64,000 nt of DNA from Escherichia coli O157:H7 str. 2011EL-2287 (GCA_000614405.2 GCA_000614405.2_3612.1); one strand, 5' to 3'. Positions 23,783-40,127 are shown, counted from the first letter of the stretch. Numbers and translations are program-made. Notes: generated by a model not told the origin, from the sequence alone.

Positions 23783-24202
23783 ATGAACATTAAATCTAAT
23801 AATCCGGCATATAGCTTTGATAACGCTTTTTGTCACGGTCCGGCGGCGAAAGGATTCGAAATCGATGGTAAACTAATTATTGTCAATGTTGACGGGGAAG
23901 AGGTTGCAGTATATCCGGTGGCAGACGTAAAAAGCCGTTTACAATGCCGCATTGATGTTACCGCCTATCAGCTTGATCCGGTCCGCATAGTTGCCCTGGT
24001 CCTGGAAGAAGAAATTAAAGCCATGCACCATAGCAACAGGTTTATTGGTGACGCTCAGGATAATATGAAGGTGTGCCGCCATAAAGTTAATGAAGTGCTT
24101 AAAGAGTACGGCTATAAAGATCTTATGATCAAACGTGATGAAAAATTCCGGTACCGTAACGACCTGGCAAATCGGATTTTTGAAATATACGAATCATTAT
24201 AA
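23783..24202 (+). CDS. hypothetical protein
   Basis: ORF with SD AAGAGG; upstream TTGACA-N17-TATATT promoter. Confidence 0.55.
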   Translation: MNIKSNNPAYSFDNAFCHGPAAKGFEIDGKLIIVNVDGEEVAVYPVADVKSRLQCRIDVTAYQLDPVRIVALVLEEEIKAMHHSNRFIGDAQDNMKVCRHKVNEVLKEYGYKDLMIKRDEKFRYRNDLANRIFEIYESL

Positions 24203-24220
24203 TTTTTTAACTGAATTATC

Positions 24221-24246
24221 AAGGGGCTTAGGCCCCTTTCTTTTTG
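24221..24246 (+). terminator. rho-independent terminator ending the plus-strand gene array
   Basis: AGGGGC-TTAG-GCCCCT hairpin followed by TTCTTTTTG. Confidence 0.7.
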
Positions 24247-25156
24247 TCTGATCTTCCCCCTACCATAAACGGCCCTACCTGGCAAGTGGAATAATTGACG
24301 AGCCATCAACCCCACACACTGTACAAATATACATGGAAAATAACTATTGCATAATTTTTCATTGTGTGGTAGCAAGTCCATTTTTACCCGTTTTCTCTCC
24401 CAAAAGTGCACGTAATGCCGCTATTGCACAAATTTTAACCTGATGCACATCTCCAATATCTTGTCAACAACTAAAAATCTTTATAAGTCATACACTTACA
24501 CAGCATCGAAAGCGTGTTCTACGCGAAAAATCGAGTATAACTATAGCCGCCAGATCTCAGAATTCACGTACGCACGCCATTCTATAGCCTGCAAAGTATT
24601 TATTCCAACCACAGAATAACGGAATAGTCAATACCTGCATAAAATAATTATTCGTGTAAACTGCATAACATAAATCAGCTCAGGTGTCAACATTTTTCGT
24701 AAACAGTCCGAAATTATCACGATGAGTTATCATAAACAGAGAAATCTTTAGTCGTCTAATGTTTACTGTACATTACTATATTGACTGGAATCATTAGATG
24801 ACTAATAGAAAGATAAGAAATAATTAACAATACAATTATTTTATCTGTAACAATAAGGCAACTATGCAAACGAATGGCATGGCGCGACGGAGTCGCGACA
24901 TAATATAAAAGCAGTAACCATCACCCCCGTGATAGTTTGTCTGCAATCTATTAATCAGATCATAGTTGCCTTGTATTTAGTTAATCATGACATAACAAGC
25001 AAGGCAACTATAGATCTGCTAATAGTTGCCCTGCTTTTATATTATGTCATAGAAACACCCGAAGGGGTGACCAAAGGTCACCTGGCATAGCCAGTGAAAT
25101 ATTGTAAACAAGTTAATTATTGTCATGCAAACGAATGGCATGGCTTATCATCTCTG

Positions 25157-25350
25157 TGTAAACAGTTTGTTTGTAAACAGTTTATACGTGAACAGTTAAC
25201 TATGTAAACTATTGAGAATGTAAACAGTAAAGGAAGTGAATAGTAAGCGAGTGAATATTAATAGCGTGAATAGTGACAGCGTAAACAGTCAGGCATGTCA
25301 ATTAAGTCTAAAGTGTCAAAGGTGTCATATTATGTCACCATTATGTCAGA
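25157..25350. repeat. array of short degenerate tandem direct repeats (GTAAACAGT / GTGAATAGT units, then TGTCA units)
   Basis: About 9 units of GT(A/G)AA(C/T)AGT at 12-17 bp spacing, then about 6 TGTCA repeats; no coding potential. Confidence 0.6.
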
Positions 25351-25609
25351 CAAGTTTTTCTCCTCTTTGTCAAGTGCTGCATGAAAATTTACAATCTGGT
25401 ATGGTAGCATTTTTGCGGCCCTGTTTACATTCAGTTGTGTATGTATAAGCCTTGTTGTGTGGGCGTTTAGACGTCTAGACGGTTGGAAGTCTACAGGTCA
25501 ATATCTAATCTATTGGTTGCTAACTATATCCCACACAAATAGTAAGAAATATAATTGTTATGTGTGTAAACTGTAACTCATGTTATCAATCCCTGTATGG
25601 ATCGCCAGT

Positions 25610-25637
25610 GGTGCGCATAATGGGTATTATGTTAAAT
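25610..25637 (+). other. dif: dif-like XerC/XerD site-specific recombination site
   Basis: GGTGCGCATAA-TGGGTA-TTATGTTAAAT: both 11-bp arms identical to E. coli dif as recalled, 2 differences in the 6-bp central region. Confidence 0.7.
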
Positions 25638-26765
25638 TGCCCGTAATGATAACAGTTCTCACAATGATAGGTATTCTCATTCACCCCACAAGATAGGTTG
25701 CAAATGTTGTGCCACTGTGTGAACGGCCTCACCTATTAATTTGCCTCACTGCCTCGATATTTGAGAATTATTATAAGAATGAGAAGTATTCCCATTCCGT
25801 CCGCCTGGCAGCACTCCTGTCGGTCAGGTCAAAATCGTGGTAGAATTGGGCCTATTCAGATATTTCTGGCTGACTCTTCAGGTCTGTGTGGGAAAAGCCA
25901 ACCTCTCCGGCGGGGCAGGGGGAGGTCAATTAAAAAATTTACGTGGTGTATGAAGCGCTCTTCAGGTAAGGCAGGTATTATGGGATGAAACCCTCTTCAG
26001 GCAATGATATTTGTGGGTGTGATATTTGCTGGAAAGCCAGATATGACGGGACTCCCGGCGGGGCAGGGGTAGTACAGACAGGGAAAATATGGGGATGTAG
26101 TTGGGTGAATTGATCGGGCAGGTAGAGTATGGAATATGTTACAAGTATGTTAAATATGGAGGTTGAATATCTGTAGGATTTGTGTGTAAAATCAAAGACT
26201 TAAGGGGTGTTGTGGTATTTTCTATAAATAATTCAAGTTTAATAGGCAATATTTGTCTCTATCCGCTTTGTGTGGTAAACAGATTCAGATTAGATTGGTT
26301 TACAAGTGTATACATAATATACAAATTAAAGATACAAGAAACCCCCCTCCCCCCTTCGGCTACCATTCACCTTTTCCTCTGACTGGTACTTAAACACTTA
26401 TTCAGACTCTTCAGGTTATCACCCATATATCATATGGCAGTGACTGGTGTCCTCCGGCCCCTCTTTCGTCACCCGTCCGCTTCGCCATGCTAATGCCATA
26501 GCTAATGGTTCGGTTGTTCACCCTGTTCACTCAGGTGTATCTCTATACCCCTTCAAACCGAAGAGAACAGAAAACCCGAATTACTCGGTAAAAGAAAAGA
26601 GAAGAACTTAATTTTATCAGGATAGGCAAGAATGTCAAGGCATGACTGCTCACTAAACAAGCAAACAGTCATGTGTGGGAGGTAAGTGATTGTGGTGGTA
26701 GGAAATTTAGTTGAAAGATGTGTTATAGGTGCTTCCAGCACTTTAGCCGGGCAGCTAATTGTGTG

Positions 26766-29459: not shown

Positions 29460-29747
29460 TCATAGTGCCTCTAAGATTTCATATCCTTCGGGTCGGAATA
29501 CAAGCCACTCCGTGGCTCCGTTTGGTCGATACGCTTTATACAGAACAACCTGATCTCGGCACATGCACATAGCTACATAGTTTTCATCCACACCTGCAGC
29601 CTGCATTGCAGCTTCTTCTCCGGCAACTGCTTTGCTTACAACCTCCTTGGTAGGCAGGTGTGCGATCAGCTCGTCACCATCATTAATTCCAAAATGGCTG
29701 AGCTCTCCATTGGTATCTTTAATCTTAATCTTAACCAGATCTTTCAT
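29460..29747 (-). CDS. hypothetical small acidic protein
   Basis: ORF in tightly coupled operon. Confidence 0.5.
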   Translation of the reverse strand: MKDLVKIKIKDTNGELSHFGINDGDELIAHLPTKEVVSKAVAGEEAAMQAAGVDENYVAMCMCRDQVVLYKAYRPNGATEWLVFRPEGYEILEAL

Positions 29748-30076
29748 TAGTCTTCCTCCAGGTTCAAAGGCCCTAAGATTTCATATGCCAGATTAGAAGT
29801 TACCAGAGGGTCTTCTGCATCTTTAGTATTATACCACCCGTGAATAACCAGAGTCCCACTCTGTTTCATATCCAACTGGAACTGTTCTGCAGTTTCCTCA
29901 TCCATCTCTAAGATCTCCATGAGGTATTTGATGTTAGGAAGGTATGCAGCTGTTACAGTTCCCTCCACCAAACCTTCGGGCCAACCTACATCTGGATGAC
30001 AAGTAGGAACCAGGTTGGTCAGCTTAATGGTGTACGCTTTTTCTGCACGAGCCTTCAGTAACGGGTCAATCTTCAT
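29747..30076 (-). CDS. hypothetical small acidic protein
   Basis: ORF; start/stop overlap with neighbours. Confidence 0.5.
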   Translation of the reverse strand: MKIDPLLKARAEKAYTIKLTNLVPTCHPDVGWPEGLVEGTVTAAYLPNIKYLMEILEMDEETAEQFQLDMKQSGTLVIHGWYNTKDAEDPLVTSNLAYEILGPLNLEED

Positions 30077-30426
30077 TATTCGTCCTCCTCTTCGGTGCCT
30101 GCTTCCAGTAATAAGTTAAGAATATCTTCTGCACAAGGCTCATAGAACTCTTGGCCTTCATTATCGATGATTTTGTAGTCATCTCCACGAATAATCAGAG
30201 GATCACTCTCAAAATTATCGAGACCTTTAACAACGACAACACGATCGATTGCCATCATTGTAAGAACTTTATCAACATCTTCCTCTGCTACACCATACTG
30301 CAGCAGAATGTCTTTGGTAGGAGGAACAGCATCCACCACAACACCGTTACCAAAACCTTCCGGCAATTTAGATAAAATATCTTCCGGAACCGCATTCACA
30401 TCAAAACCGGTAATTTCTACTTTCAT
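30076..30426 (-). CDS. hypothetical small acidic protein
   Basis: ORF; start/stop overlap. Confidence 0.5.
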   Translation of the reverse strand: MKVEITGFDVNAVPEDILSKLPEGFGNGVVVDAVPPTKDILLQYGVAEEDVDKVLTMMAIDRVVVVKGLDNFESDPLIIRGDDYKIIDNEGQEFYEPCAEDILNLLLEAGTEEEDE

Positions 30427-30687
30427 TTACAGCACCTCTTCGTCGACTACTTCATAAAAATGGCTTGGGATTGCAATAGCGTTCTCACCTTCACCTACAA
30501 ACACAGTTCCGTCAAGAATCAACATCATAAGAATTTCTGGAATATCCTCTTCCGGAACGTTGCCAAAACCTTTAATCAGCGTGTAGGTTGGAAGATTTAC
30601 CTCTAAGATGTCACCATCTTTAGAACGGAAATCTACACCGTCCTGAATCTCTGCCGTTTCAAGGTTTTTCAATTTAATCTTCATCAA
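30427..30687 (-). CDS. hypothetical small acidic protein (MKIKL family)
   Basis: ORF with SD CAGGAGAC; minus-strand TTGACA-N17-AATAAT promoter upstream. Confidence 0.55.
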   Translation of the reverse strand: MMKIKLKNLETAEIQDGVDFRSKDGDILEVNLPTYTLIKGFGNVPEEDIPEILMMLILDGTVFVGEGENAIAIPSHFYEVVDEEVL

Positions 30688-30763
30688 TCGGTCTCCTGTC
30701 TTGTTAAGATGAAGGTATTATTTCACACAGGGTTGGCGTTGTCAACACCTGTGTGCAAGAAAA

Positions 30764-31159
30764 TTACTGAAACAGTGCGGATAAATTACCTTCTGGTGGA
30801 AACTTATCTGCCAAAAACGGTGTTAGCACAGTAGCCTTCTGAAGATCTGGGGTCCACTCGTTGTTCAGAACATCCCAGTAGTACGCAATGTTGCTGTGTG
30901 GGTGCCGCATTACGAACTTTTTCCCTTCGTAGTCATCTGAAACCTCTACAGAAGAAATAACAACAGAATCTTCAAGGGTTTCTTCATAGAAAGATCCACC
31001 TTCAAATTTCCAACGAGATGCAAGAGCCCCTGCCTTGAACGCTGCAGATAACGGACTGTCGGCAAGAACATACATTTCTTGCACTCTGTCGCTGCGATCT
31101 TTGCTTCTTACGTTGTATACAGTATCTGAGCTATACTCAACACGGTATAGTCTTACCAT
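30764..31159 (-). CDS. hypothetical protein (paralog of 32970-33368)
   Basis: ORF; shares H(P)..YW....W(T)P motif with 32970-33368. Confidence 0.55.
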   Translation of the reverse strand: MVRLYRVEYSSDTVYNVRSKDRSDRVQEMYVLADSPLSAAFKAGALASRWKFEGGSFYEETLEDSVVISSVEVSDDYEGKKFVMRHPHSNIAYYWDVLNNEWTPDLQKATVLTPFLADKFPPEGNLSALFQ

Positions 31160-31491
31160 TACCGCACCTCCTCAATAACTTCCACATCTGAACCTACCAC
31201 AAATGCAAAAGGACAGGTTTCATGAAAGACATCCGGATCGCCGCCAAGCTTGCTAACAATTTCTCCACCACTAATAAACACAAGCTCACCGATATTCATC
31301 AGATTGCTGAAATAGTATCCATAATGATTAAAGAATGCAGCAGGGTCAGGTAAACTAGTAGCCTCAAGTTCTACATCGTTTGAGATTACTTTCTTATCAT
31401 AACCTCTCGCCTTCTGAGATGCAAGATCTGCAGAATCTTCAGGCGACCGGAGATGCACAGGAATTGTTTCACCAATAAATCGTACTTTCAT
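31159..31491 (-). CDS. hypothetical small acidic protein (MKV family; ORF extends to 31518)
   Basis: ORF; SD GGGTGAG before ATG 31491. Confidence 0.5.
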   Translation of the reverse strand: MKVRFIGETIPVHLRSPEDSADLASQKARGYDKKVISNDVELEATSLPDPAAFFNHYGYYFSNLMNIGELVFISGGEIVSKLGGDPDVFHETCPFAFVVGSDVEVIEEVR

Positions 31492-31495
31492 ATTC

Positions 31496-31759
31496 TCACC
31501 CAACAACCATAGCTTCAAAAGGAGTCATGAACGAATAAACGGCATCATCATCTGCTTCAGGGAATGCTCCCAAAGACTTCATGTCTGAGCCCTTGACAAA
31601 TACAAGGTTTTGATCAAAAGCTTCTTGGGGATCAATCCGATACATATCTCGTAGAATATCGCTTACCTCCTCATCAAGAGGTGAGTATGCTGTGCACGTT
31701 TTTCCGATCAAGCTTTGAGAATCAGGGTATCCACCTGAAGTTTTAAAATAAACAATCAT
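31496..31759 (-). CDS. hypothetical small acidic protein (paralog family, KGSDMKSLGA motif)
   Basis: ORF. Confidence 0.5.
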   Translation of the reverse strand: MIVYFKTSGGYPDSQSLIGKTCTAYSPLDEEVSDILRDMYRIDPQEAFDQNLVFVKGSDMKSLGAFPEADDDAVYSFMTPFEAMVVG

Positions 31760-31854
31760 ATAGTATCACCTCTGGCAAGAGATGGGGATTCCTTTCCCAC
31801 AAATAATTACAAACTTTTCTTTTTATTGAGAGAAGTATGCTAATCCAAGCAGGA

Positions 31855-32124
31855 TTACTCTTCTACAATCTCATACACATCAGGAGTTACAATCAACTCT
31901 TCTCCGTTACCCGGTGCAACAAACACCACCAAGCCTTCAGGTGTGTGCTTTTTAGCCATCTCGATAACATCTTCCCGCAGAGCTGGCTCCATCAGATCAA
32001 AACCTTCACCCAGGGCATCACGAACCACCTTCATATAGTCCACTGGTTGTGCTTCAACAATCATGCCTTCAACCAGTCCACAGTTTTTGTCTGCCAGCTC
32101 AGTTTTGAATAATTTAATTTTCAT
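31855..32124 (-). CDS. hypothetical small acidic protein (MKIKL family)
   Basis: ORF with SD GAGGAGAC. Confidence 0.55.
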   Translation of the reverse strand: MKIKLFKTELADKNCGLVEGMIVEAQPVDYMKVVRDALGEGFDLMEPALREDVIEMAKKHTPEGLVVFVAPGNGEELIVTPDVYEIVEE

Positions 32125-32150
32125 TTAGAGGTCTCCTCAATTATTTGATA

Positions 32151-32252
32151 TTAATAGCCGTAACCTAACACATTAACTACAATTGCGATTGCAAACATAA
32201 TTTCAAAGCATGCAATCTCTACATTTGGGACTAATTTCTTAATCACACCCAT
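32151..32252 (-). CDS. hypothetical small hydrophobic peptide (33 aa)
   Basis: ORF below cutoff; SD GAGGTG 7 nt upstream. Confidence 0.3.
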   Translation of the reverse strand: MGVIKKLVPNVEIACFEIMFAIAIVVNVLGYGY

Positions 32253-32261
32253 TGTAGCACC

Positions 32262-32579
32262 TCATTCTCCAAAGTCAATCTTTACTTTGCCTTTCCCCTT
32301 ACCTTTCTTTCCACCACATTTAGCCAGCTGACGTGCTGCAACATCTACCATACGGTCAGTTGCCTCGTAAGCATCACTGCCTTTAGCTTTGGCAATAACT
32401 TCTTTTCCAGAATTGTCAAAAATGAACGCCATAACTTCCTGGTGATCATTTTCAACTTTTACACTCACACGTGCATAGTTGGCAGAGGGGTGCAAACGCT
32501 CCAGCTTAGACATTTTGTGGGAAATGAAAGACACCATACCTTCAGTGATTTCTACGTTGCCAGTGATTTCAATTTGCAT
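32262..32579 (-). CDS. hpf: ribosome hibernation promoting factor homolog (HPF/YfiA/RaiA family)
   Basis: MQIEITGNVEITEGMVSFISHKMSKLERL...VSVKVE...DAYEATDRMVDVAARQLAK aligns along its length with E. coli HPF (MQLNITGNNVEITEALREFV...KLARQLTK); SD AAGGAAC. Confidence 0.75.
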   Translation of the reverse strand: MQIEITGNVEITEGMVSFISHKMSKLERLHPSANYARVSVKVENDHQEVMAFIFDNSGKEVIAKAKGSDAYEATDRMVDVAARQLAKCGGKKGKGKGKVKIDFGE

Positions 32580-32626
32580 AACGTGTTCCTTTTAAAGAAG
32601 AGGGAATAACTCTCTCTTTGAAAACA

Positions 32627-32655
32627 ATAATACTATAGCTGAAGCGTTGTGTCAA
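32627..32655 (-). promoter_or_regulatory. sigma70-like promoter for the HPF homolog (minus strand)
   Basis: TTGACA-N17-TATTAT on minus strand about 50 nt upstream of the hpf start. Confidence 0.5.
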
Positions 32656-32661
32656 CAGTTT

Positions 32662-32952
32662 TTACAGATTGTTGTCGATAGTATTTAAAATATCCACAGC
32701 AAGATCTGCCATTTTTCGAACATACTCTGCAAACTCAACAGAATCCTTGATCAAAGAATTTACAGGGTCGTACCCTAGAGCGTTCAAAATGGCTGCAGCA
32801 TCTACAACCTTTTCATCATTTGCAAAGATCTCTCCGTCAAACTTATAGGTCCATTTTGAGTCAATCTTGGCAGGGCATGGCTGGTCCATGCTTGTTACAC
32901 CATCGTCTTTAACCTCTCCTGCGTTATCAATATTCAGAACTAAATCCATCAT
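32662..32952 (-). CDS. hypothetical protein
   Basis: ORF. Confidence 0.5.
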   Translation of the reverse strand: MMDLVLNIDNAGEVKDDGVTSMDQPCPAKIDSKWTYKFDGEIFANDEKVVDAAAILNALGYDPVNSLIKDSVEFAEYVRKMADLAVDILNTIDNNL

Positions 32953-32969
32953 AGTGGCACCTCACTGTT

Positions 32970-33368
32970 TCAGTTTAGCTTTTCTTCAACAACCCCATAG
33001 CTCGGGGCAGAGTCAAGAGCTTTTTGGTTTAAAAGTGGTGTAGCAGAATCTGCAAACGGTGTCCAAGTTTTTGTTCTGGCATTCCAGTAATGCTTCACTC
33101 TGGAATCTGGATGCACTATAACAAAAACTTTTTCACTTGTCAACACATTAATTTCTTCTACACCCTTGCTGATAATTTCTCCGTCATAGCCCCCAGTCTG
33201 GTATCCTTCGTACCAGGTTCTTGCATAGGCATAGCCAGCCTGCCAGCATGCAGCCTCCTCCGAGGTGGAGACTACGTAGAAGTCTTTCTCAAATTCTGGA
33301 ATACGCCCTTGCTTTACGCTCCAAGCTCCGCGAATTTTCATTGTAACTTTAAACAGTTTATTTTTCAC
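32970..33368 (-). CDS. hypothetical protein (paralog of 30764-31159)
   Basis: ORF; VIVHPDSRVKHYWNARTKTWTP versus VMRHPHSNIAYYWDVLNNEWTP. Confidence 0.55.
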   Translation of the reverse strand: MKNKLFKVTMKIRGAWSVKQGRIPEFEKDFYVVSTSEEAACWQAGYAYARTWYEGYQTGGYDGEIISKGVEEINVLTSEKVFVIVHPDSRVKHYWNARTKTWTPFADSATPLLNQKALDSAPSYGVVEEKLN

Positions 33369-33380
33369 AACGGTTACCCA

Positions 33381-33635
33381 TCACAGCTCTACAATATCTG
33401 CATCTGACCCTACCCCAAAGGCATAATAGGACTCTTCCCCGAAATAATATTCAGGTGCACCAGCGGTGATCAGGTCTGATCCCAAGATAAACACCACGTT
33501 GTGGCCTACATAACTGTGATGTTGCCGCACAGGATCATCCCACGGCAACCCTTCAAAGTATACCGCAGGAACGACCTTTCCATTCAGGAAGGATTGTCCC
33601 AAGTAGACGTTAGAATCAAGAATTTTAACCTTCAT
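33381..33635 (-). CDS. hypothetical small acidic protein (MKVK family)
   Basis: ORF; MKVKILDSNVYLGQ...SDLITAGA. Confidence 0.55.
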   Translation of the reverse strand: MKVKILDSNVYLGQSFLNGKVVPAVYFEGLPWDDPVRQHHSYVGHNVVFILGSDLITAGAPEYYFGEESYYAFGVGSDADIVEL

Positions 33636-33852
33636 GATCGTCCTCCACTACCTCTACATCCTCACCTAGGGCAAAGTTGTAGGTCCACTGACTGTCAAAG
33701 CATTCCTGAGATGCACCAGCGGCAATAAGATCTGCTCCTTTTATTTTTAAAAGGTCAGGGTAATCTTCGTTAGGGACAGCAGTAAACACTTTTCCTACTA
33801 AAGGCTCCTGACCAATATAGAAGCTTGAATCTAAAACTTTAACTTTCATCAA
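33625..33852 (-). CDS. hypothetical small acidic protein (MKVK family)
   Basis: ORF; MMKVKVLDSSFYIGQ...ADLIAAGA. Confidence 0.55.
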   Translation of the reverse strand: MMKVKVLDSSFYIGQEPLVGKVFTAVPNEDYPDLLKIKGADLIAAGASQECFDSQWTYNFALGEDVEVVEDDHEG

Positions 33853-34136
33853 CGGTCTCCATCAGGTGGTTGTGGGACGTAAACACTGTTACGAATATCG
33901 TCCGCAGTATAGTAATAAGTGTCTCCAACCCTATCTCTGGCTGCAATGTACTCTGCTATACCAATAAGTGCCATTGATTTGGTGGCGTATCTTCCCCACT
34001 CGTTAGCTCCCCAGTAGAATTTAGACCAATAGGGAATAAGACCGAACAAATATACCTTTTGACGAACTTCCCAGTAAGTGCCTTTCCCGACAAGTTTAAA
34101 CTCAACTTCACCACTGTTAATCTTTTTCATTATCAA
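33849..34136 (-). CDS. hypothetical protein
   Basis: ORF, ATGA-type coupling. Confidence 0.5.
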   Translation of the reverse strand: MIMKKINSGEVEFKLVGKGTYWEVRQKVYLFGLIPYWSKFYWGANEWGRYATKSMALIGIAEYIAARDRVGDTYYYTADDIRNSVYVPQPPDGDR

Positions 34137-34429
34137 TCTCCCTCTACCGTGGTCGGATTGTCAGTAATAAATTGAGCATTAGCTGGAGGTACGCCTGACA
34201 TTTTCCACACGACCATAAGTTTGTAACCAGGCACTCTATTAAGCGCAGATCGAGTAGAGTTTGTGCACGTATACTTTCGCTTTCCAAACCCGTTCTCCAT
34301 CATAATCCAGTACCCAGTATCTTTGTCACCAGGTATTGGTAGACCACCTTCATCAACCCACTGAATGGACCACGGCACGATGGCTACAGCTTTATATTTA
34401 AACTTTTTAAACCACTCAAAAAGTTTCAT
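34133..34429 (-). CDS. hypothetical protein
   Basis: ORF. Confidence 0.5.
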   Translation of the reverse strand: MKLFEWFKKFKYKAVAIVPWSIQWVDEGGLPIPGDKDTGYWIMMENGFGKRKYTCTNSTRSALNRVPGYKLMVVWKMSGVPPANAQFITDNPTTVEGD

Positions 34430-34524
34430 AATTCAGCCTCGCATAGACATAATCACTATAAACAGGCAAACAATGAATCCGAATGCCACGCCACCCATAA
34501 ACGTTAATATTGATGCAATCATAG

Positions 34525-34710
34525 TCAATCAGCCTCGCTTGGCAACTCTTCCACCTTAACATGCCGAAAAGTGTTACCGTAATGGTTGATCCATGACATC
34601 AGCTCACTTTCTTGCTCTTCCTCTGGAATGAACTCTCGAATACTGACAAGTTTTAAGAAAACCCAATCACAATCTGCACCCATTCTACCAGACAGACAAT
34701 AGTGCTTCAT
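34525..34710 (-). CDS. hypothetical protein
   Basis: ORF. Confidence 0.4.
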   Translation of the reverse strand: MKHYCLSGRMGADCDWVFLKLVSIREFIPEEEQESELMSWINHYGNTFRHVKVEELPSEAD

Positions 34711-34729
34711 AAAAACCCTCCATCCTGGT

Positions 34730-34930
34730 TTAGAATACTGCCTCTTTTAATGATCCAAGGCGCAGCAGGTGTGAAATCTGATCCACATTCATGGTAGATT
34801 CAATCTCCTCTCCTTTGAAAGGTTCTCGGCAAAACAGTACTACATTCGGGTTTTCGCTACGCACTATATAATACAGATCGTTCAAATCATTCTCATAGTA
34901 GGTATTAAATTTAAGAATTTTGTCACTCAT
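34730..34930 (-). CDS. hypothetical protein
   Basis: ORF. Confidence 0.45.
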   Translation of the reverse strand: MSDKILKFNTYYENDLNDLYYIVRSENPNVVLFCREPFKGEEIESTMNVDQISHLLRLGSLKEAVF

Positions 34931-35184
34931 TTTCTACTCCTCTTCTTAGATTTTTGGGGAGAAACGCTTTCTGCAATACGAGACAAACGTTCTTCTGAAG
35001 CCTTGCCTATTCCAGGTTTTTTGAGTGGATTATCTTTATGACCACAATCCAATTGGATATCGGATACCTCTCCAACCTTGTAAGTCAATTCTAGCAAAAG
35101 GTTGTCGTCCTTGTCAAATGTTCTTACGATAAATTTTTTATCGTTCTCCTGAACTTCATATCTGGTACCTGCAGTATACAGCAT
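34927..35184 (-). CDS. hypothetical protein
   Basis: ORF. Confidence 0.45.
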   Translation of the reverse strand: MLYTAGTRYEVQENDKKFIVRTFDKDDNLLLELTYKVGEVSDIQLDCGHKDNPLKKPGIGKASEERLSRIAESVSPQKSKKRSRK

Positions 35185-35199
35185 GGTGCGATATCCAGA

Positions 35200-35547
35200 T
35201 CATTGAGCCTCCTTCTGCTGCAACAGCATTAACTCTTTGTTAGAGATCTTTACTGCTGTTTTTATTGTTCCATCTTTACGGAACCACGACCAGAACTCTA
35301 CAGTGTCTCCACTATCAAGCAAAGCATGCCCATGGTAGAAGTCTTTGTCCTTGGACAGTTTCTCATCTATGTCTGCATCGACACATTCGTGATCCATAGC
35401 ATTTTGCCTGAATGCATCGGTTATGCCAATGCACGCCTTGCTCTCAAGACTGGCATATCCGATATCTTTTAATTCAGTTTCCCAAACCCAGAACCCTATA
35501 AAAGCCACAACAGCTACCCACATTAATATCGATTTAATCTTTGACAT
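35200..35547 (-). CDS. hypothetical membrane-anchored protein
   Basis: ORF; N-terminal TM segment ILMWVAVVAFIGFWVW. Confidence 0.5.
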   Translation of the reverse strand: MSKIKSILMWVAVVAFIGFWVWETELKDIGYASLESKACIGITDAFRQNAMDHECVDADIDEKLSKDKDFYHGHALLDSGDTVEFWSWFRKDGTIKTAVKISNKELMLLQQKEAQ

Positions 35548-35607
35548 TCTCTCTACCTCTTTCTTAATTTGTTTAATTATGGCACATCCTTTGTGCCTTG
35601 TTGCACA

Positions 35608-36069
35608 CTACTTAGACAACAGTTCAAAATAGTGCAAAATTAACAGAAGTTGAATTACGCCTAGCACAACGGCAAGTATGTTAATCTTAGAATCAAAAAA
35701 CTTCTTAACTTTTACCCTAAAAGGCTCCTTGATGTCCTTTACGATCCTATTTATAGATGATTTCATATCCCTGATTACCATCCTAAACATTAGAGACGGA
35801 TCTTCCTTCTCTGTAACAGAATCGAAAACATACTCTCTTCGGTCATAAGGACCTCCAGATCTGCGTATTAACCTCTCCACAGAGACCTCGTACGACACAC
35901 CTGTAACGTAATCATCTATGATAAGTAGTGACGGGTCTTTATCGTCCAAGGGTATTAAAGTTATCTTTCCAGATTTTGTTAAAATTTCTCCTTTTTCAAG
36001 CAAGGTGTACCAATGCTCTCTACCAAGATTGTTGAGGCACGTTTTTACATATTTAACAAACATCGTCAC
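35608..36069 (-). CDS. hypothetical protein
   Basis: ORF. Confidence 0.5.
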   Translation of the reverse strand: MTMFVKYVKTCLNNLGREHWYTLLEKGEILTKSGKITLIPLDDKDPSLLIIDDYVTGVSYEVSVERLIRRSGGPYDRREYVFDSVTEKEDPSLMFRMVIRDMKSSINRIVKDIKEPFRVKVKKFFDSKINILAVVLGVIQLLLILHYFELLSK

Positions 36070-36269
36070 CCCTCATCGCACGTCTGATATAACCACTCTA
36101 TGAAATCTTGATACCATTCGCCCTCTGAGCGCTCCGTAGGCCAATAATCTTCACCCTCTCGTGCATTAAAATCTGAGTATTCAACTTTCCACTCCTTTAC
36201 CAGCTCGTGGAGAAGGTTTTCAGCCTGCTCTAAAGATTTATTTTTTGCCATTGCTGTCTCCTTTTTCAA
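36066..36269 (-). CDS. hypothetical protein
   Basis: ORF with SD AGGAGAC. Confidence 0.45.
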   Translation of the reverse strand: MKKETAMAKNKSLEQAENLLHELVKEWKVEYSDFNAREGEDYWPTERSEGEWYQDFIEWLYQTCDEG

Positions 36270-36470
36270 GATAGTTATACATCAGAACTGCACCACCTAA
36301 AATGGCTACCAGTAACAATACCCCAGATAGCATCTCAATAAACATGGCTTGAAACACTGGAAGGTCTCCCTAAATTAACGCACCATTTTAAATACATGCT
36401 CTTTTCCCATAAAGGTGCCTGGCTAAGATCTGCGTAGAACGCAATCTCTTTAAGAACAGTATAAACAGTT

Positions 36471-36707
36471 TTAGGTGCGGTCTCCATCCCTACTCTCCTT
36501 TTTCTCCTTACGGATATTCTTGTAGTAATCAACTAGGCACATTATTACAATGAAGATAACAATAGGCCAAAAAGGTGCAGCAGTGATGATGGTGATAAAA
36601 TCATCAAACTTCACCTTTCGTCTAGCTACGATGCATACACCTGTCAAGAATACCGCTGTTATAACGGCTATTACCAGGTAACCTATTAGCACAGCATTTA
36701 TACTCAT
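36471..36707 (-). CDS. hypothetical membrane protein
   Basis: ORF; two hydrophobic segments. Confidence 0.5.
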   Translation of the reverse strand: MSINAVLIGYLVIAVITAVFLTGVCIVARRKVKFDDFITIITAAPFWPIVIFIVIMCLVDYYKNIRKEKKESRDGDRT

Positions 36708-36738
36708 TAGTCCTCCCTTTTGTAGGTTAAATTATATA

Positions 36739-37272
36739 CTACAGATGGTTGCTTATGGTGTCAAGAAAATTATCTCGTTCTTTCTCGGAGTTTTCACGGG
36801 TGTAGCTGAAAAACATATCTAGAATAACCTTATTGATATATTCCAGCTCCTCTGTGTTCAGGTACTTAGCAGGATCTACAATGACATCCCAAATATCATA
36901 CAGACCACACTCATGATATCCATAACGCCACTCAATTGTCAAGCTGAGCGGCAAATCTTTACCGTCACAAACAACCTTCCATCTACATATGTTGGTATCT
37001 GGGCGTATCTGTGCACGGTATACCTGTACAAAATCCAATTTGAATTTGAGGTATTCGTCATGCAATTTAAGCACAAAGCTCTCGATTTGTGGAGACACTT
37101 TTGCAGCAAACTGTGCGTATTTGTATTTGCACTGGATGATCTTTCTGCGTTTTGCAGTTAAATTTTTTGCCGCCAGTTGTTCTTCAGTGTATCTCCACCT
37201 ACGATCAACAAACGCAACAGGGTCTTTGTCCCCATAGAGGTCTTCCCAGTTAATCAGAAGCATACCTGTCAC
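36739..37272 (-). CDS. hypothetical protein
   Basis: 177-aa ORF. Confidence 0.5.
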   Translation of the reverse strand: MTGMLLINWEDLYGDKDPVAFVDRRWRYTEEQLAAKNLTAKRRKIIQCKYKYAQFAAKVSPQIESFVLKLHDEYLKFKLDFVQVYRAQIRPDTNICRWKVVCDGKDLPLSLTIEWRYGYHECGLYDIWDVIVDPAKYLNTEELEYINKVILDMFFSYTRENSEKERDNFLDTISNHL

Positions 37273-37502
37273 TCCTCCACAACTTCAAGGCCTTTACCGC
37301 CTCGCTCTGGCAGATTACTTAAAGATAGGTAATACATATAATCAGGAGAGATCCTGCCAGACTCTGCACCTGCAGATAGTAAATCTTTTCCCTTAACCAT
37401 GACAACATTATCGTTTGCAGATAGTCGTTTTGCTTCCACAATTTTACCAACGCAGTCAACCAAGGAAGGGTACCCTAAATCTGTAAGAAATTTAACTTTC
37501 AT
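37269..37502 (-). CDS. hypothetical small acidic protein (MKVK family)
   Basis: ORF; MKVKFL...GKDLLSAGA...EVVEE. Confidence 0.55.
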   Translation of the reverse strand: MKVKFLTDLGYPSLVDCVGKIVEAKRLSANDNVVMVKGKDLLSAGAESGRISPDYMYYLSLSNLPERGGKGLEVVEE

Positions 37503-38211: not shown

Positions 38212-38526
38212 CTACCAGGTCACTGTCAAGTAGGCAACCGTGTTATTTTTCTCTGGAGAGATGCCAACAACATCTACCTGTAGACCTCCTGCCCTCAAAT
38301 CCCCAACAATATGCGGGAAGTAATCTGAGAGATGCGAGGGTAGATTTATCGAAAATCCGCATCCCAGAAAGCCTGCTAACGCTTTATTTTGTATCTCCCC
38401 TACAATCGCATCATAAATGGAGTTAAGCTCGTCAGGGAGCGTTACAGGACGTTTTAGCGCTAACTGGTGTAATTTGTCCTTAGCACTCATTTTCATTTCA
38501 GGTCTACCTCTGGTGGTGCCAACCAC
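38212..38526 (-). CDS. hypothetical protein
   Basis: ORF overlapping the end of the upstream methyltransferase gene. Confidence 0.45.
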   Translation of the reverse strand: MVGTTRGRPEMKMSAKDKLHQLALKRPVTLPDELNSIYDAIVGEIQNKALAGFLGCGFSINLPSHLSDYFPHIVGDLRAGGLQVDVVGISPEKNNTVAYLTVTW

Positions 38527-39026
38527 ATAAATGGCGGCAAGCCTAAACGGTTTTTCTTATCCCACACAAAATATGCATATGCTTGCCCGTCAGTTCTGCC
38601 ATTTGATTGAAATGACGGACGCTTAGATATTGTGATCACAGTGGTAGGTGCATTATCAAGCCACCATTCAAATCTGGCTTTGCTTTCCAGAAAATTAAGA
38701 CGTAAAAGCATAATAACTACGTCAGCATCTTTCAACGCCTTGTCTACAAACTCACGAGCCAAGCTGTATGGTGGGTTGGTGATAATACAGTCAACATGGT
38801 TGTATTCTGTATTCAGATAGTCAACACCTTCTTGGATTTCTCCCCATGCAGATCCTAACGGCATACGGGAGTAGAACACACCTGAGGCACTATTCCTGCA
38901 AGGCTCTAAGTAGGTCCAGTCTTCTGGGAACGGAATAAGGTCATACAGCCCTTCTGCACACCACTCCGGTGTCACATACTCATCGTAGGCGTTACGTTGT
39001 TCATCAGGTTTTCTAGCACAAGTCAT
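38493..39026 (-). CDS. DNA methyltransferase (N6-adenine or N4-cytosine class)
   Basis: Catalytic motif IV ITNPPY. Confidence 0.7.
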   Translation of the reverse strand: MTCARKPDEQRNAYDEYVTPEWCAEGLYDLIPFPEDWTYLEPCRNSASGVFYSRMPLGSAWGEIQEGVDYLNTEYNHVDCIITNPPYSLAREFVDKALKDADVVIMLLRLNFLESKARFEWWLDNAPTTVITISKRPSFQSNGRTDGQAYAYFVWDKKNRLGLPPFMWLAPPEVDLK

Positions 39027-39077: not shown

Positions 39078-40127
39078 TTAAACTTCTTCGACAATTCCTG
39101 CACCCAGGATTTTTTCATTGAGCTCTTTTGCTGTTTTAATAATATTATCTACCAGACGCTTGCGAGTCTTATCTTTCACCTTAACCTCTTCACCGCCGTT
39201 CAGAGTAGTCTTCAATTGAGACAGAATATCCTGAAGTTCAACGACAGAGAATCTCTGCAGATCTTCTGAAGTAATCTCACCCAGGGCAATTCGGACGGTC
39301 TCGCCACTTTCCATCTGCAGATTCAGGAACACAGTGTGAACATCACCTTTCGAACCACCCGCTTTTGCAGATTCAACAGCATGAACTAACTCATCTAAAG
39401 ATGTGCACTGGTGAATCTCCGGAAGACCTGCTTCACCTAACACGCCTTCTTCATCACCTTTTGCCAGAAGCTTTTTCGGTTTTTGTCCGTTCTGGATGCG
39501 TTGTATGTTGCCTTCATCCAGAATAATAGCTCCAGTGCGTGCTGCCAGCTCTTCTCCGTCCAACCACACTTCGCCACCAGCTGTGATGGATGCGATCTCA
39601 TCTTCTGTCAGCACCCCACCGTAGTATTTTTCGATTAAGCGTTCGAAACGTTTTTTCCAGTAGCTGACCTGAGTATTCATGTTCACACCGTTACCATAAG
39701 TGCCACCTTGGTAGTAGTGGAACATAAACTCTGTGTCCGGAGCCACAGTGCGTTCTTTGCAACCCAGCCATAAGATTGTTCCCGCAGAGCAGCACATCCC
39801 TTCAGCATGTGCAACAACGCTTGCCTGAGACTCGCGGAATGCCTGCAGATAAGCCATTGCAATGTGCACGCAACCCCCAGGACTATTGATGATCACCCGA
39901 ATGCTTTCTTCCGGCTGAGCCATACGGATCGTCTGCAGACGAGACATATGATCTTGTAAGTCTTCCAAATCGTCGATATAAAGAACGTGGTCAACAACTG
40001 GTGTTGGGTAGCTGTATGTTTCCATAATACCACCCGGCATACCGAACATTTTATTACTCATAGGTTCGAAACCGTTCTGTTTTTCTTTCATGCCGTGTAC
40101 CATGGTGCTACGAGGTGTTAAATTCAT
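39078..40127 (-). CDS. ClpP-family serine protease homolog with about 150-aa C-terminal extension
   Basis: INSPGGCVH motif and ClpP-like Ser (CCSAGT) context; 349 aa. Confidence 0.65.
   Translation of the reverse strand: MNLTPRSTMVHGMKEKQNGFEPMSNKMFGMPGGIMETYSYPTPVVDHVLYIDDLEDLQDHMSRLQTIRMAQPEESIRVIINSPGGCVHIAMAYLQAFRESQASVVAHAEGMCCSAGTILWLGCKERTVAPDTEFMFHYYQGGTYGNGVNMNTQVSYWKKRFERLIEKYYGGVLTEDEIASITAGGEVWLDGEELAARTGAIILDEGNIQRIQNGQKPKKLLAKGDEEGVLGEAGLPEIHQCTSLDELVHAVESAKAGGSKGDVHTVFLNLQMESGETVRIALGEITSEDLQRFSVVELQDILSQLKTTLNGGEEVKVKDKTRKRLVDNIIKTAKELNEKILGAGIVEEV

Follow-up and report, generated by a model that had tools for sequence, protein, structure and literature searches.

What kind of system is formed by a run of small minus-strand genes whose products begin alike and tend to end in acidic residues? 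Such genes occupy positions 29,460 to 37,502 of a 64,000-nucleotide stretch of DNA (hereafter the window, analysed over its full length) deposited as part of Escherichia coli O157:H7 str. 2011EL-2287 (GCA_000614405.2). The window belongs to a Vequintavirus, an rV5-like E. coli myovirus, and the region matches rV5 gp122–gp148. An original prediction made from the sequence alone had described a tandem array of diversified small acidic paralogs, and took their repeated duplication as a sign of arms-race genes such as DNA mimics or inhibitors of host defence. That small proteins have repeatedly been duplicated and have diverged is supported, and their number was even under-counted, since 12 of the approximately 27 genes of the block can be assigned to three paralog families, designated A, B and C. 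As to their role, we favour, with limited confidence, early-expressed, subfunctionalised small protein-binding modules, a reading of which the structural and evolutionary parts are much firmer than the functional part.

Open reading frames (ORFs) were confirmed on the minus strand at all of the predicted coordinates, and every other gene of the block lies on the same strand. The members of the families are separated from their neighbours by 0–12 nt or overlap them by 1–11 nt, consistent with the predicted translational coupling. The genes of the three families are interspersed along the block and do not form one strict tandem array.

Family A

Family A consists of the five genes that the original prediction had grouped by their MKVK-type start, central motif and acidic C-terminus:

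37269–37502, minus strand: gp122, 77 amino acids (aa), net charge -1; PHROG 5009 8e-36, external profile 2.8e-20, hhalign 99.1%
33625–33852, minus strand: gp135, 74–75 aa, annotated start an ATG at 33849; PHROG 5009 2e-38
33381–33635, minus strand: gp136, 84 aa, 16-aa insert between strands β2 and β3; PHROG 5009 4e-32
31496–31759, minus strand: gp142, 87 aa, insert of about 20 aa; PHROG 13920, external profile 8.4e-8, hhalign 94.9%
31159–31491, minus strand: gp143, 110 aa; PHROG 13661, external profile 6.5e-7, hhalign 95.1% to the family

Several kinds of sequence comparison unite these genes. In an all-against-all blastp search of 32 block proteins, gp135 and gp136 matched at 1.5e-14 (40% identity over 83 aa), gp135 and gp122 at 1.7e-6, gp143 and both gp135 and gp136 at about 5e-4, and gp142 and gp122 at 3e-3. 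A hidden Markov model of gp122, gp135 and gp136 retrieved gp142 (1.2e-6) and gp143 (2.7e-5) among the 463 window ORFs of at least 40 aa, the next best score being 0.18. A profile built exclusively from relatives outside Vequintavirus retrieved these five window genes and no others (1e-24 to 6.5e-7, as compared with 0.29 for the next best hit), and alignment of each gene to this external profile by hhalign gave probabilities of 95–99%; between gp143 and gp136 the value was 95.3%. Because the external-only profile and hhalign both recover all five genes, the family is considered real and, as judged from these sequence profiles, its members are true homologs. The motifs said to be common to the five are less uniform than the homology, gp142 (MIVYFK…AMVVG) and gp143 retaining them only in degenerate form and gp122 not being acidic. 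In gp143 a long N-terminal and central insert is present, while the C-terminal half is conserved.

Three members (gp122, gp135 and gp136) match PHROG 5009 over the whole profile, gp142 matches it weakly (1.2e-4), and gp143 does not match it. Searches of Pfam, NCBIfam and PDB sequences revealed no relative of family A or family C; in Pfam, no family was found at E <= 0.1 for the window members or at E <= 1 for 30 members of the family.

Predicted folds of families A and C

The AlphaFold model of gp135, calculated from an eight-sequence alignment, is confident (predicted local distance difference test, pLDDT, 90.9; predicted template modelling score, pTM, 0.79) and represents a five-stranded SH3-like β-barrel with strands at residues 2–6, 22–27, 34–38, 57–62 and 66–71 and a short helix at 39–44. 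The five antiparallel strands and the similarity to SH3, KOW or PsaE folds place it among the small SH3-like barrels. The MKVK(L/V)L start corresponds to strand β1 and is conserved in distant homologs, and the likewise conserved (D/E)VEV(V/I) motif forms the last strand, β5. In Foldseek searches of viral models gp135 matched only uncharacterised phage proteins (from Shigella CM1, Citrobacter Merlin, Cronobacter CS01, RB49 and others).

The structure of family C was predicted for one member, gp141. Its AlphaFold2 model (pLDDT 87.9) has strands at residues 2–5, 22–27, 66–69, 76–79 and 84–88 in the same order as in gp135, with helices at 30–60 (about 30 residues) inserted between β2 and β3. The inserts of gp136, gp142 and gp143 are found at the same β2–β3 position. 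Since the strand order is the same, and six targets are common to the top-50 Foldseek lists of gp135 and gp141, the models suggest that families A and C probably belong to one fold class.

Family C

The genes at 31855, 30427 and 30076 had been listed as neighbours of the array. They do have the MK(I/V)K start and the acidic end, but they are not detectably related to family A and probably belong instead, together with two genes that the original prediction had not listed, to a third set of paralogs, of which four (gp145–gp148) lie in tandem:

31855–32124, minus strand: gp141, 89 aa; hhalign to gp148 67.4% over 82 columns
30427–30687, minus strand: gp145, 85–86 aa; hhalign to gp146 75.1% (83 columns) and to gp148 24%, with a consistent architecture in the alignment
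30076–30426, minus strand: gp146, 116 aa; hhalign to gp147 88.9% (76 columns) and to gp145 75.1%
29747–30076, minus strand: gp147, 109 aa; hhalign to gp146 88.9%; additional to the predicted genes
29460–29747, minus strand: gp148, 95 aa; hhalign to gp141 67.4%; additional to the predicted genes

With thin alignments the mutual hhalign probabilities of gp141, gp145, gp146 and the others were 5–14%, no better than chance matches, among which gp145 scored 43% against a methyltransferase. Orthologs were then added from two syntenic and much diverged lineages, represented by a metagenomic contig (L015) and an NCBI assembly contig (L016), in which the orthologs of the block genes are 29–95% identical; the chance matches collapsed and a connected network of family C emerged, its remaining links being weaker (10–24%). 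The best Foldseek match of the gp141 model in the viral library was a 95-aa protein of Vequintavirus ECP32 (E 1.6e-3, 27% identity), which is the ortholog of gp148 and is represented by an independent BFVD model. The network obtained with diverged orthologs and this match are the reasons for treating gp141 and gp145–gp148 as one family, an assignment that is reasonably but not conclusively supported.

A single superfamily comprising A and C was also considered and was rejected as not demonstrable: in comparisons of gp141, gp145 and gp146 with family A, hhalign probabilities did not exceed 31% and only the first 7–30 residues could be aligned. The proposed check by alignment and structure prediction gave a confident barrel for family A (gp135), and sequence similarity between A and C limited to the termini.

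Family B

The second paralog pair that had been predicted was substantiated, gp137 and gp144 matching each other in blastp (3e-10) and hhalign (97.6%) and sharing PHROG 7379:

32970–33368, minus strand: gp137, 132 aa, isoelectric point (pI) 7.8; PHROG 7379 4e-74; follows gp135–gp136
30764–31159, minus strand: gp144, 131 aa; PHROG 7379 2e-66; follows gp142–gp143

The gene order A-A-B is therefore seen twice, in gp135-136-137 (32970–33852) and gp142-143-144 (30764–31759), which suggests a duplicated three-gene cassette. In line with this, gp136 is closest to gp143. A clean duplication of the A-A-B block was rejected, as the similarity scores are only partly consistent with it.

A search of the PDB with the family B profile aligned residues 54–87 to designed Kelch-blade repeat proteins (SAKe6) with a summed E value of 2e-10, in which no stretch was individually significant. 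This match is probably an artefact of summing over repeats, although a single β-blade-like element could be present. A metagenomic Vequintavirus relative of the region 32662–33368 (P0063) is a chimera of gp137 and the C-terminus of gp138.

Distribution beyond Vequintavirus

Among deposited phages, tblastn searches found families A, B and C confined to Vequintavirus, and a search with the relative P0033 gave no match. Word-indexed searches started from gp135 and gp137 did not reach beyond close orthologs, and an exhaustive profile search was needed to reach distant members of family A: among 1.84 billion representatives it identified 52 proteins (cluster representatives) at E <= 1e-3. Distant members are encoded by Pantoea phage AH01, by phages of Proteus and Aeromonas, by Klebsiella KLB26 and by the T4-like Krischvirus Whisky, always within blocks of small early or replication-associated genes. 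Krischvirus Whisky has five family A copies within 3.4 kb, and two copies are present on each of two metagenomic contigs. Most relatives are standalone proteins of 65–90 aa; in P0015, P0022 and P0054 two or three domains follow one another in the same chain, and in P0049 the family A domain is fused to DUF3310 (2.6e-20). No public source names any distant member of family A, and the literature searched contained no functional study of these genes.

Age of the duplications and selection

The window was compared with five other Vequintavirus genomes, and gene-wide ratios of non-synonymous to synonymous substitution rates (dN/dS) were 0.05–0.20 (mean 0.11) for family A, 0.06 for family B and 0.02–0.20 for family C, against a mean of 0.15 for the other genes of the block. 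The comparison across related genomes, proposed as a check of the arms-race inference, therefore went against it. None of the five genomes lacks a member of family A, and the searches for gp136, gp137 and gp148 each yielded 118 phage records.

At greater depth, the orthologs in L015 and L016 are 72% and 71% identical for gp122, 66% and 80% for gp135, 60% and 59% for gp142, 51% and 56% for gp143 and 40% and 39% for gp144, and the paralog-specific inserts are conserved in them. gp136 has no ortholog in L015 and one of 45% identity in L016; gp137 has none in either. Turnover of family members, with gp136 and gp137 being lost, is restricted to this depth. Because the paralogs of family A have orthologs of their own, with their inserts conserved, in lineages that are only 45–80% identical (39–80% when gp144 is included), the duplications are ancient, predating the separation of these lineages, with each copy individually constrained by purifying selection. 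This constraint and the low dN/dS values imply that the copies are non-redundant, that is, subfunctionalised, and not a rapidly turning-over arms-race array.

Two metagenomic Vequintavirus relatives of the region 33381–33852 (P0006 and P0007) combine the N-terminal half of gp135 with the C-terminal half of gp136. Together with the gp137–gp138 chimera, they indicate deletions by recombination between adjacent genes or paralogs.

Termini and charge

The acidic ends to which attention had been drawn consist of two parts. Beyond the conserved β5 motif the residues vary among orthologs, as in gp135 (VEVVEDDHEG, VEIIEGSNL and AEIVTGDGV) and gp143 (VEVIEEVR, VELLV and VEIVV). In three of the five family A genes (gp122, gp135 and gp143) the last codons contain a GGAGG or GAGGAGG Shine-Dalgarno sequence of the coupled downstream gene. 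In the window as a whole, coupled genes encode 1.80 aspartate or glutamate residues among their last eight, as compared with 1.18 for uncoupled genes (p=0.005). Owing to these Shine-Dalgarno sequences, the more acidic tails of coupled genes and the lack of conservation, the extra acidic residues past β5, which make up part of the 'acidic tail', are regarded as largely a coding footprint of the ribosome-binding site of the next gene.

The median net charge per residue in the family is -0.087 (range -0.165 to +0.042), as compared with -0.043 for the rest of the block; the acidity is modest and not universal, the pI being above 5.5 in 8 of 49 family members, and gp122 and gp137 are non-acidic.

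Expression and genomic setting

Two promoters annotated in rV5 precede the genes of the distal part of the block:

32627–32655, minus strand: σ70-type promoter (rV5 P144), 11 of 12 consensus positions, upstream of the HPF gene and driving gp139–gp144
30717–30745, minus strand: σ70-type promoter (rV5 P150), 11 of 12 consensus positions, with an extended -10 TG, upstream of gp145–gp148

In rV5 the block lies within the transcription unit of genes 82–163, alongside genes of nucleotide metabolism and replication (PMC3606486). From the promoters and this transcription unit we infer that the block is transcribed by the host RNA polymerase and expressed early or in the middle of infection. The rV5 paper does not mention the paralogs (PMC3606486), and the annotation of gp122–gp148 in rV5 is 'hypothetical' throughout, save for gp139 (ribosome hibernation factor) and gp128 ('virion structural protein').

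Over its 8.2 kb the region shows 96–98% identity to many Escherichia phages belonging to the genus Vequintavirus (nimi, PDX, FFH2 and rV5). It is matched by 122 database records, 115 of which cover at least 80% of its length. Eighteen GenBank records (MG0656xx) named 'Campylobacter phage', with Campylobacter or Campylobacter jejuni given as the host, match the E. coli rV5-like phages at about 94–97% identity over the block, and may reflect a mis-assigned host or contamination.

The HPF/RaiA homolog gp139 (32262–32579, minus strand) is situated in the middle of the block, between family members and directly downstream of the strong σ70-type promoter, in an operon common with gp141–gp144. Its orthologs in the distant lineages are 56–64% identical and match Pfam Ribosomal_S30AE. 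The promoter-bearing gap between gp144 and gp145 is occupied in L015 by a gene for a 98-aa Pfam Phage_P22_Y8K6 protein (L015:9802–10098), lying between the orthologs of gp144 and gp145; this marks the gap as an insertion point for accessory genes. Just upstream of the paralogs, a DNA methyltransferase and a ClpP-like protease are encoded (38493–39026 and 39078–40127, minus strand), which share with them the strand and, in rV5, the transcription unit. The methyltransferase corresponds to rV5 gp118 and is 85–88% identical in deep lineages.

The long minus-strand block begins after a strand switch near 27 kb. It is preceded by a 2.5-kb gene-free stretch of low G+C content (24200–26700), located between the convergent plus- and minus-strand gene blocks. 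All four copies of TGTAAACAG in the window are found within it (25157–25429; 0.8 expected by chance), as are three GTGAATA-type repeats with 15-nt spacing (25236–25285) and a perfect 18-nt inverted repeat (24897/25031). Searches of this stretch for tRNAs and Rfam families gave no match. It may correspond to the 'non-coding' box on the rV5 genome map (PMC3606486), and is a candidate origin or iteron region.

Possible functions

According to the reading that we somewhat favour, the block would represent a set of accessory genes transcribed by the host RNA polymerase early or in the middle of infection and encoding small cytoplasmic proteins of three duplicated families. Each small module would bind a partner of its own shortly after infection, most probably a host protein and possibly another member of the set; the existence of fused multi-domain relatives is the reason for considering that the partners could be one another. 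The common barrel would serve as a scaffold, with the β2–β3 insert and the loops determining partner specificity. Several points weigh against this reading. The role as binding modules is deduced from fold class, size, genomic position and domain fusions, and the early timing from promoter consensus. Family C depends on hhalign links of 67–89% and one Foldseek match at E 1.6e-3, and the gp141 model was built from an alignment of the putative paralogs only, so it is not fully independent of the assumption that family C exists. As to a common origin of A and C, the sequence similarity extends no further than the termini and the Foldseek targets in common score only E 0.2–1.2, and the duplication of an A-A-B cassette accommodates the similarity scores only in part, gp142 being closest to gp122 and not to gp135.

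Other explanations of the same data were weighed. The resemblance of the proteins could be an artefact of translation initiation, with A-rich second codons and Shine-Dalgarno sequences giving unrelated ORFs MK(V/I)K starts and acidic ends: MK is the commonest protein start in the window (26 of 138 genes), and the acidity of coupled tails and the Shine-Dalgarno sequences in the last codons fit such an origin. It would account for the sole similarity between A and C, that of the termini, and is retained as a partial explanation of it. For A and B it is ruled out by the external profile and hhalign, that is, by significant full-length profile matches, as well as by the confident common fold and the conserved internal motifs, so that as a general explanation it is hardly credible. 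Counter-defence proteins of an arms race, which would mimic DNA by their acidity or inhibit host immunity, for example restriction-modification (RM), directly in some other way, are less easily dismissed yet still unlikely. The proteins are small, mostly acidic, translationally coupled and encoded in an early block, their patchy distribution across unrelated phages and repeated amplification are typical of accessory genes, and one family A relative is fused to DUF3310, a family whose members include SaV, an early lactococcal protein that interacts with the abortive-infection system AbiV. However, dN/dS is no higher than in neighbouring genes, no genome compared lacks family A, conservation of the region is widespread, and orthologs together with their inserts have been kept in deep lineages; neither elevated dN/dS nor presence/absence turnover among close relatives was found in the five genomes and 122 records. 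The charge is modest and not conserved, and the acidic tail is labile and in part encodes Shine-Dalgarno sequences. Among the structural matches examined there was no DNA-mimic protein, and no similarity to Ocr/ArdA-like proteins was found. Furthermore, the BASEL study reported that Vequintavirinae are 'exceptionally susceptible' to RM systems and without effective protection (PMC8594841). A DNA-mimic role was thus rejected on charge conservation, structural similarity and evolutionary signature; inhibition or modulation of some host factor, possibly an immune one and including a non-RM defence system, is possible.

Two further readings start from the fold itself. Families A and C could constitute an undescribed, widespread class of modular SH3-like phage effectors, deployed in sets that, whether assembled into hetero-oligomers or serving as a panel of adaptors, would counteract several host factors or immune sensors simultaneously. 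This would explain why multi-copy or fused repeats recur in unrelated phages (Vequintavirus, the T4-like Krischvirus and metagenomic sipho- or podo-like contigs), and we regard it as a speculative extension, somewhat less probable than counter-defence. Alternatively, the KOW/L24-like fold hints at KOW/Sm-like nucleic-acid- or ribosome-binding factors, which would modulate host translation or transcription alongside the phage hibernation factor, gp139 being encoded between family members and in one operon with gp141–gp144. Against this, Pfam gives no KOW match, the proteins are acidic to neutral with no conserved basic positions in the family alignment, and the adjacency to HPF is a single observation in one lineage; this option is therefore improbable, more so than the effector sets. 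The small protein-binding modules remain the preferred reading.

Few E. coli phages are isolated as commonly as those of the rV5 type, which are also candidates for use in therapy and biocontrol. Three old paralog families account for nearly half of the 8-kb block, which reduces about 12 unknown genes to three problems and offers concrete targets for deletion, pull-down and structural work. More generally, small size, acidity and duplication are not in themselves a sign of an arms-race DNA mimic.

Comparison with known systems

The genes themselves are not new, those of family A being already present in PHROGs as unannotated groups. PHROGs 5009, 13920 and 13661, all without assigned function or fold, contain the same proteins split three ways. 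What is new is their union into family A, together with the predicted fold, family C, the recurring multi-copy clusters and the evolutionary picture.

The predicted barrel resembles known SH3-like barrels, such as the KOW domain of Spt5/NusG, PsaE, SH3 domains and the C-terminal domain of retroviral integrase, at only 4–25% identity, and Pfam searches with the family members gave no KOW or SH3 match. Family A differs from these barrels by the short helix between β3 and β4 and, unlike nucleic-acid-binding KOW or Sm proteins, it is acidic. The likeness to the DNA-mimic anti-restriction proteins T7 Ocr, ArdA and T4 Arn lies in their being small, early and often acidic phage proteins. The differences are the fold, the lower and non-conserved charge density of the present families, their purifying selection and their occurrence in an RM-sensitive group of phages.

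Small early genes with paralogs are well known from large virulent phages, and T4-like and other such phages likewise contain blocks of small coupled early genes that include paralogs. The small-gene blocks of T4-like phages are highly variable, whereas the content of the Vequintavirus block is stable across the genus.

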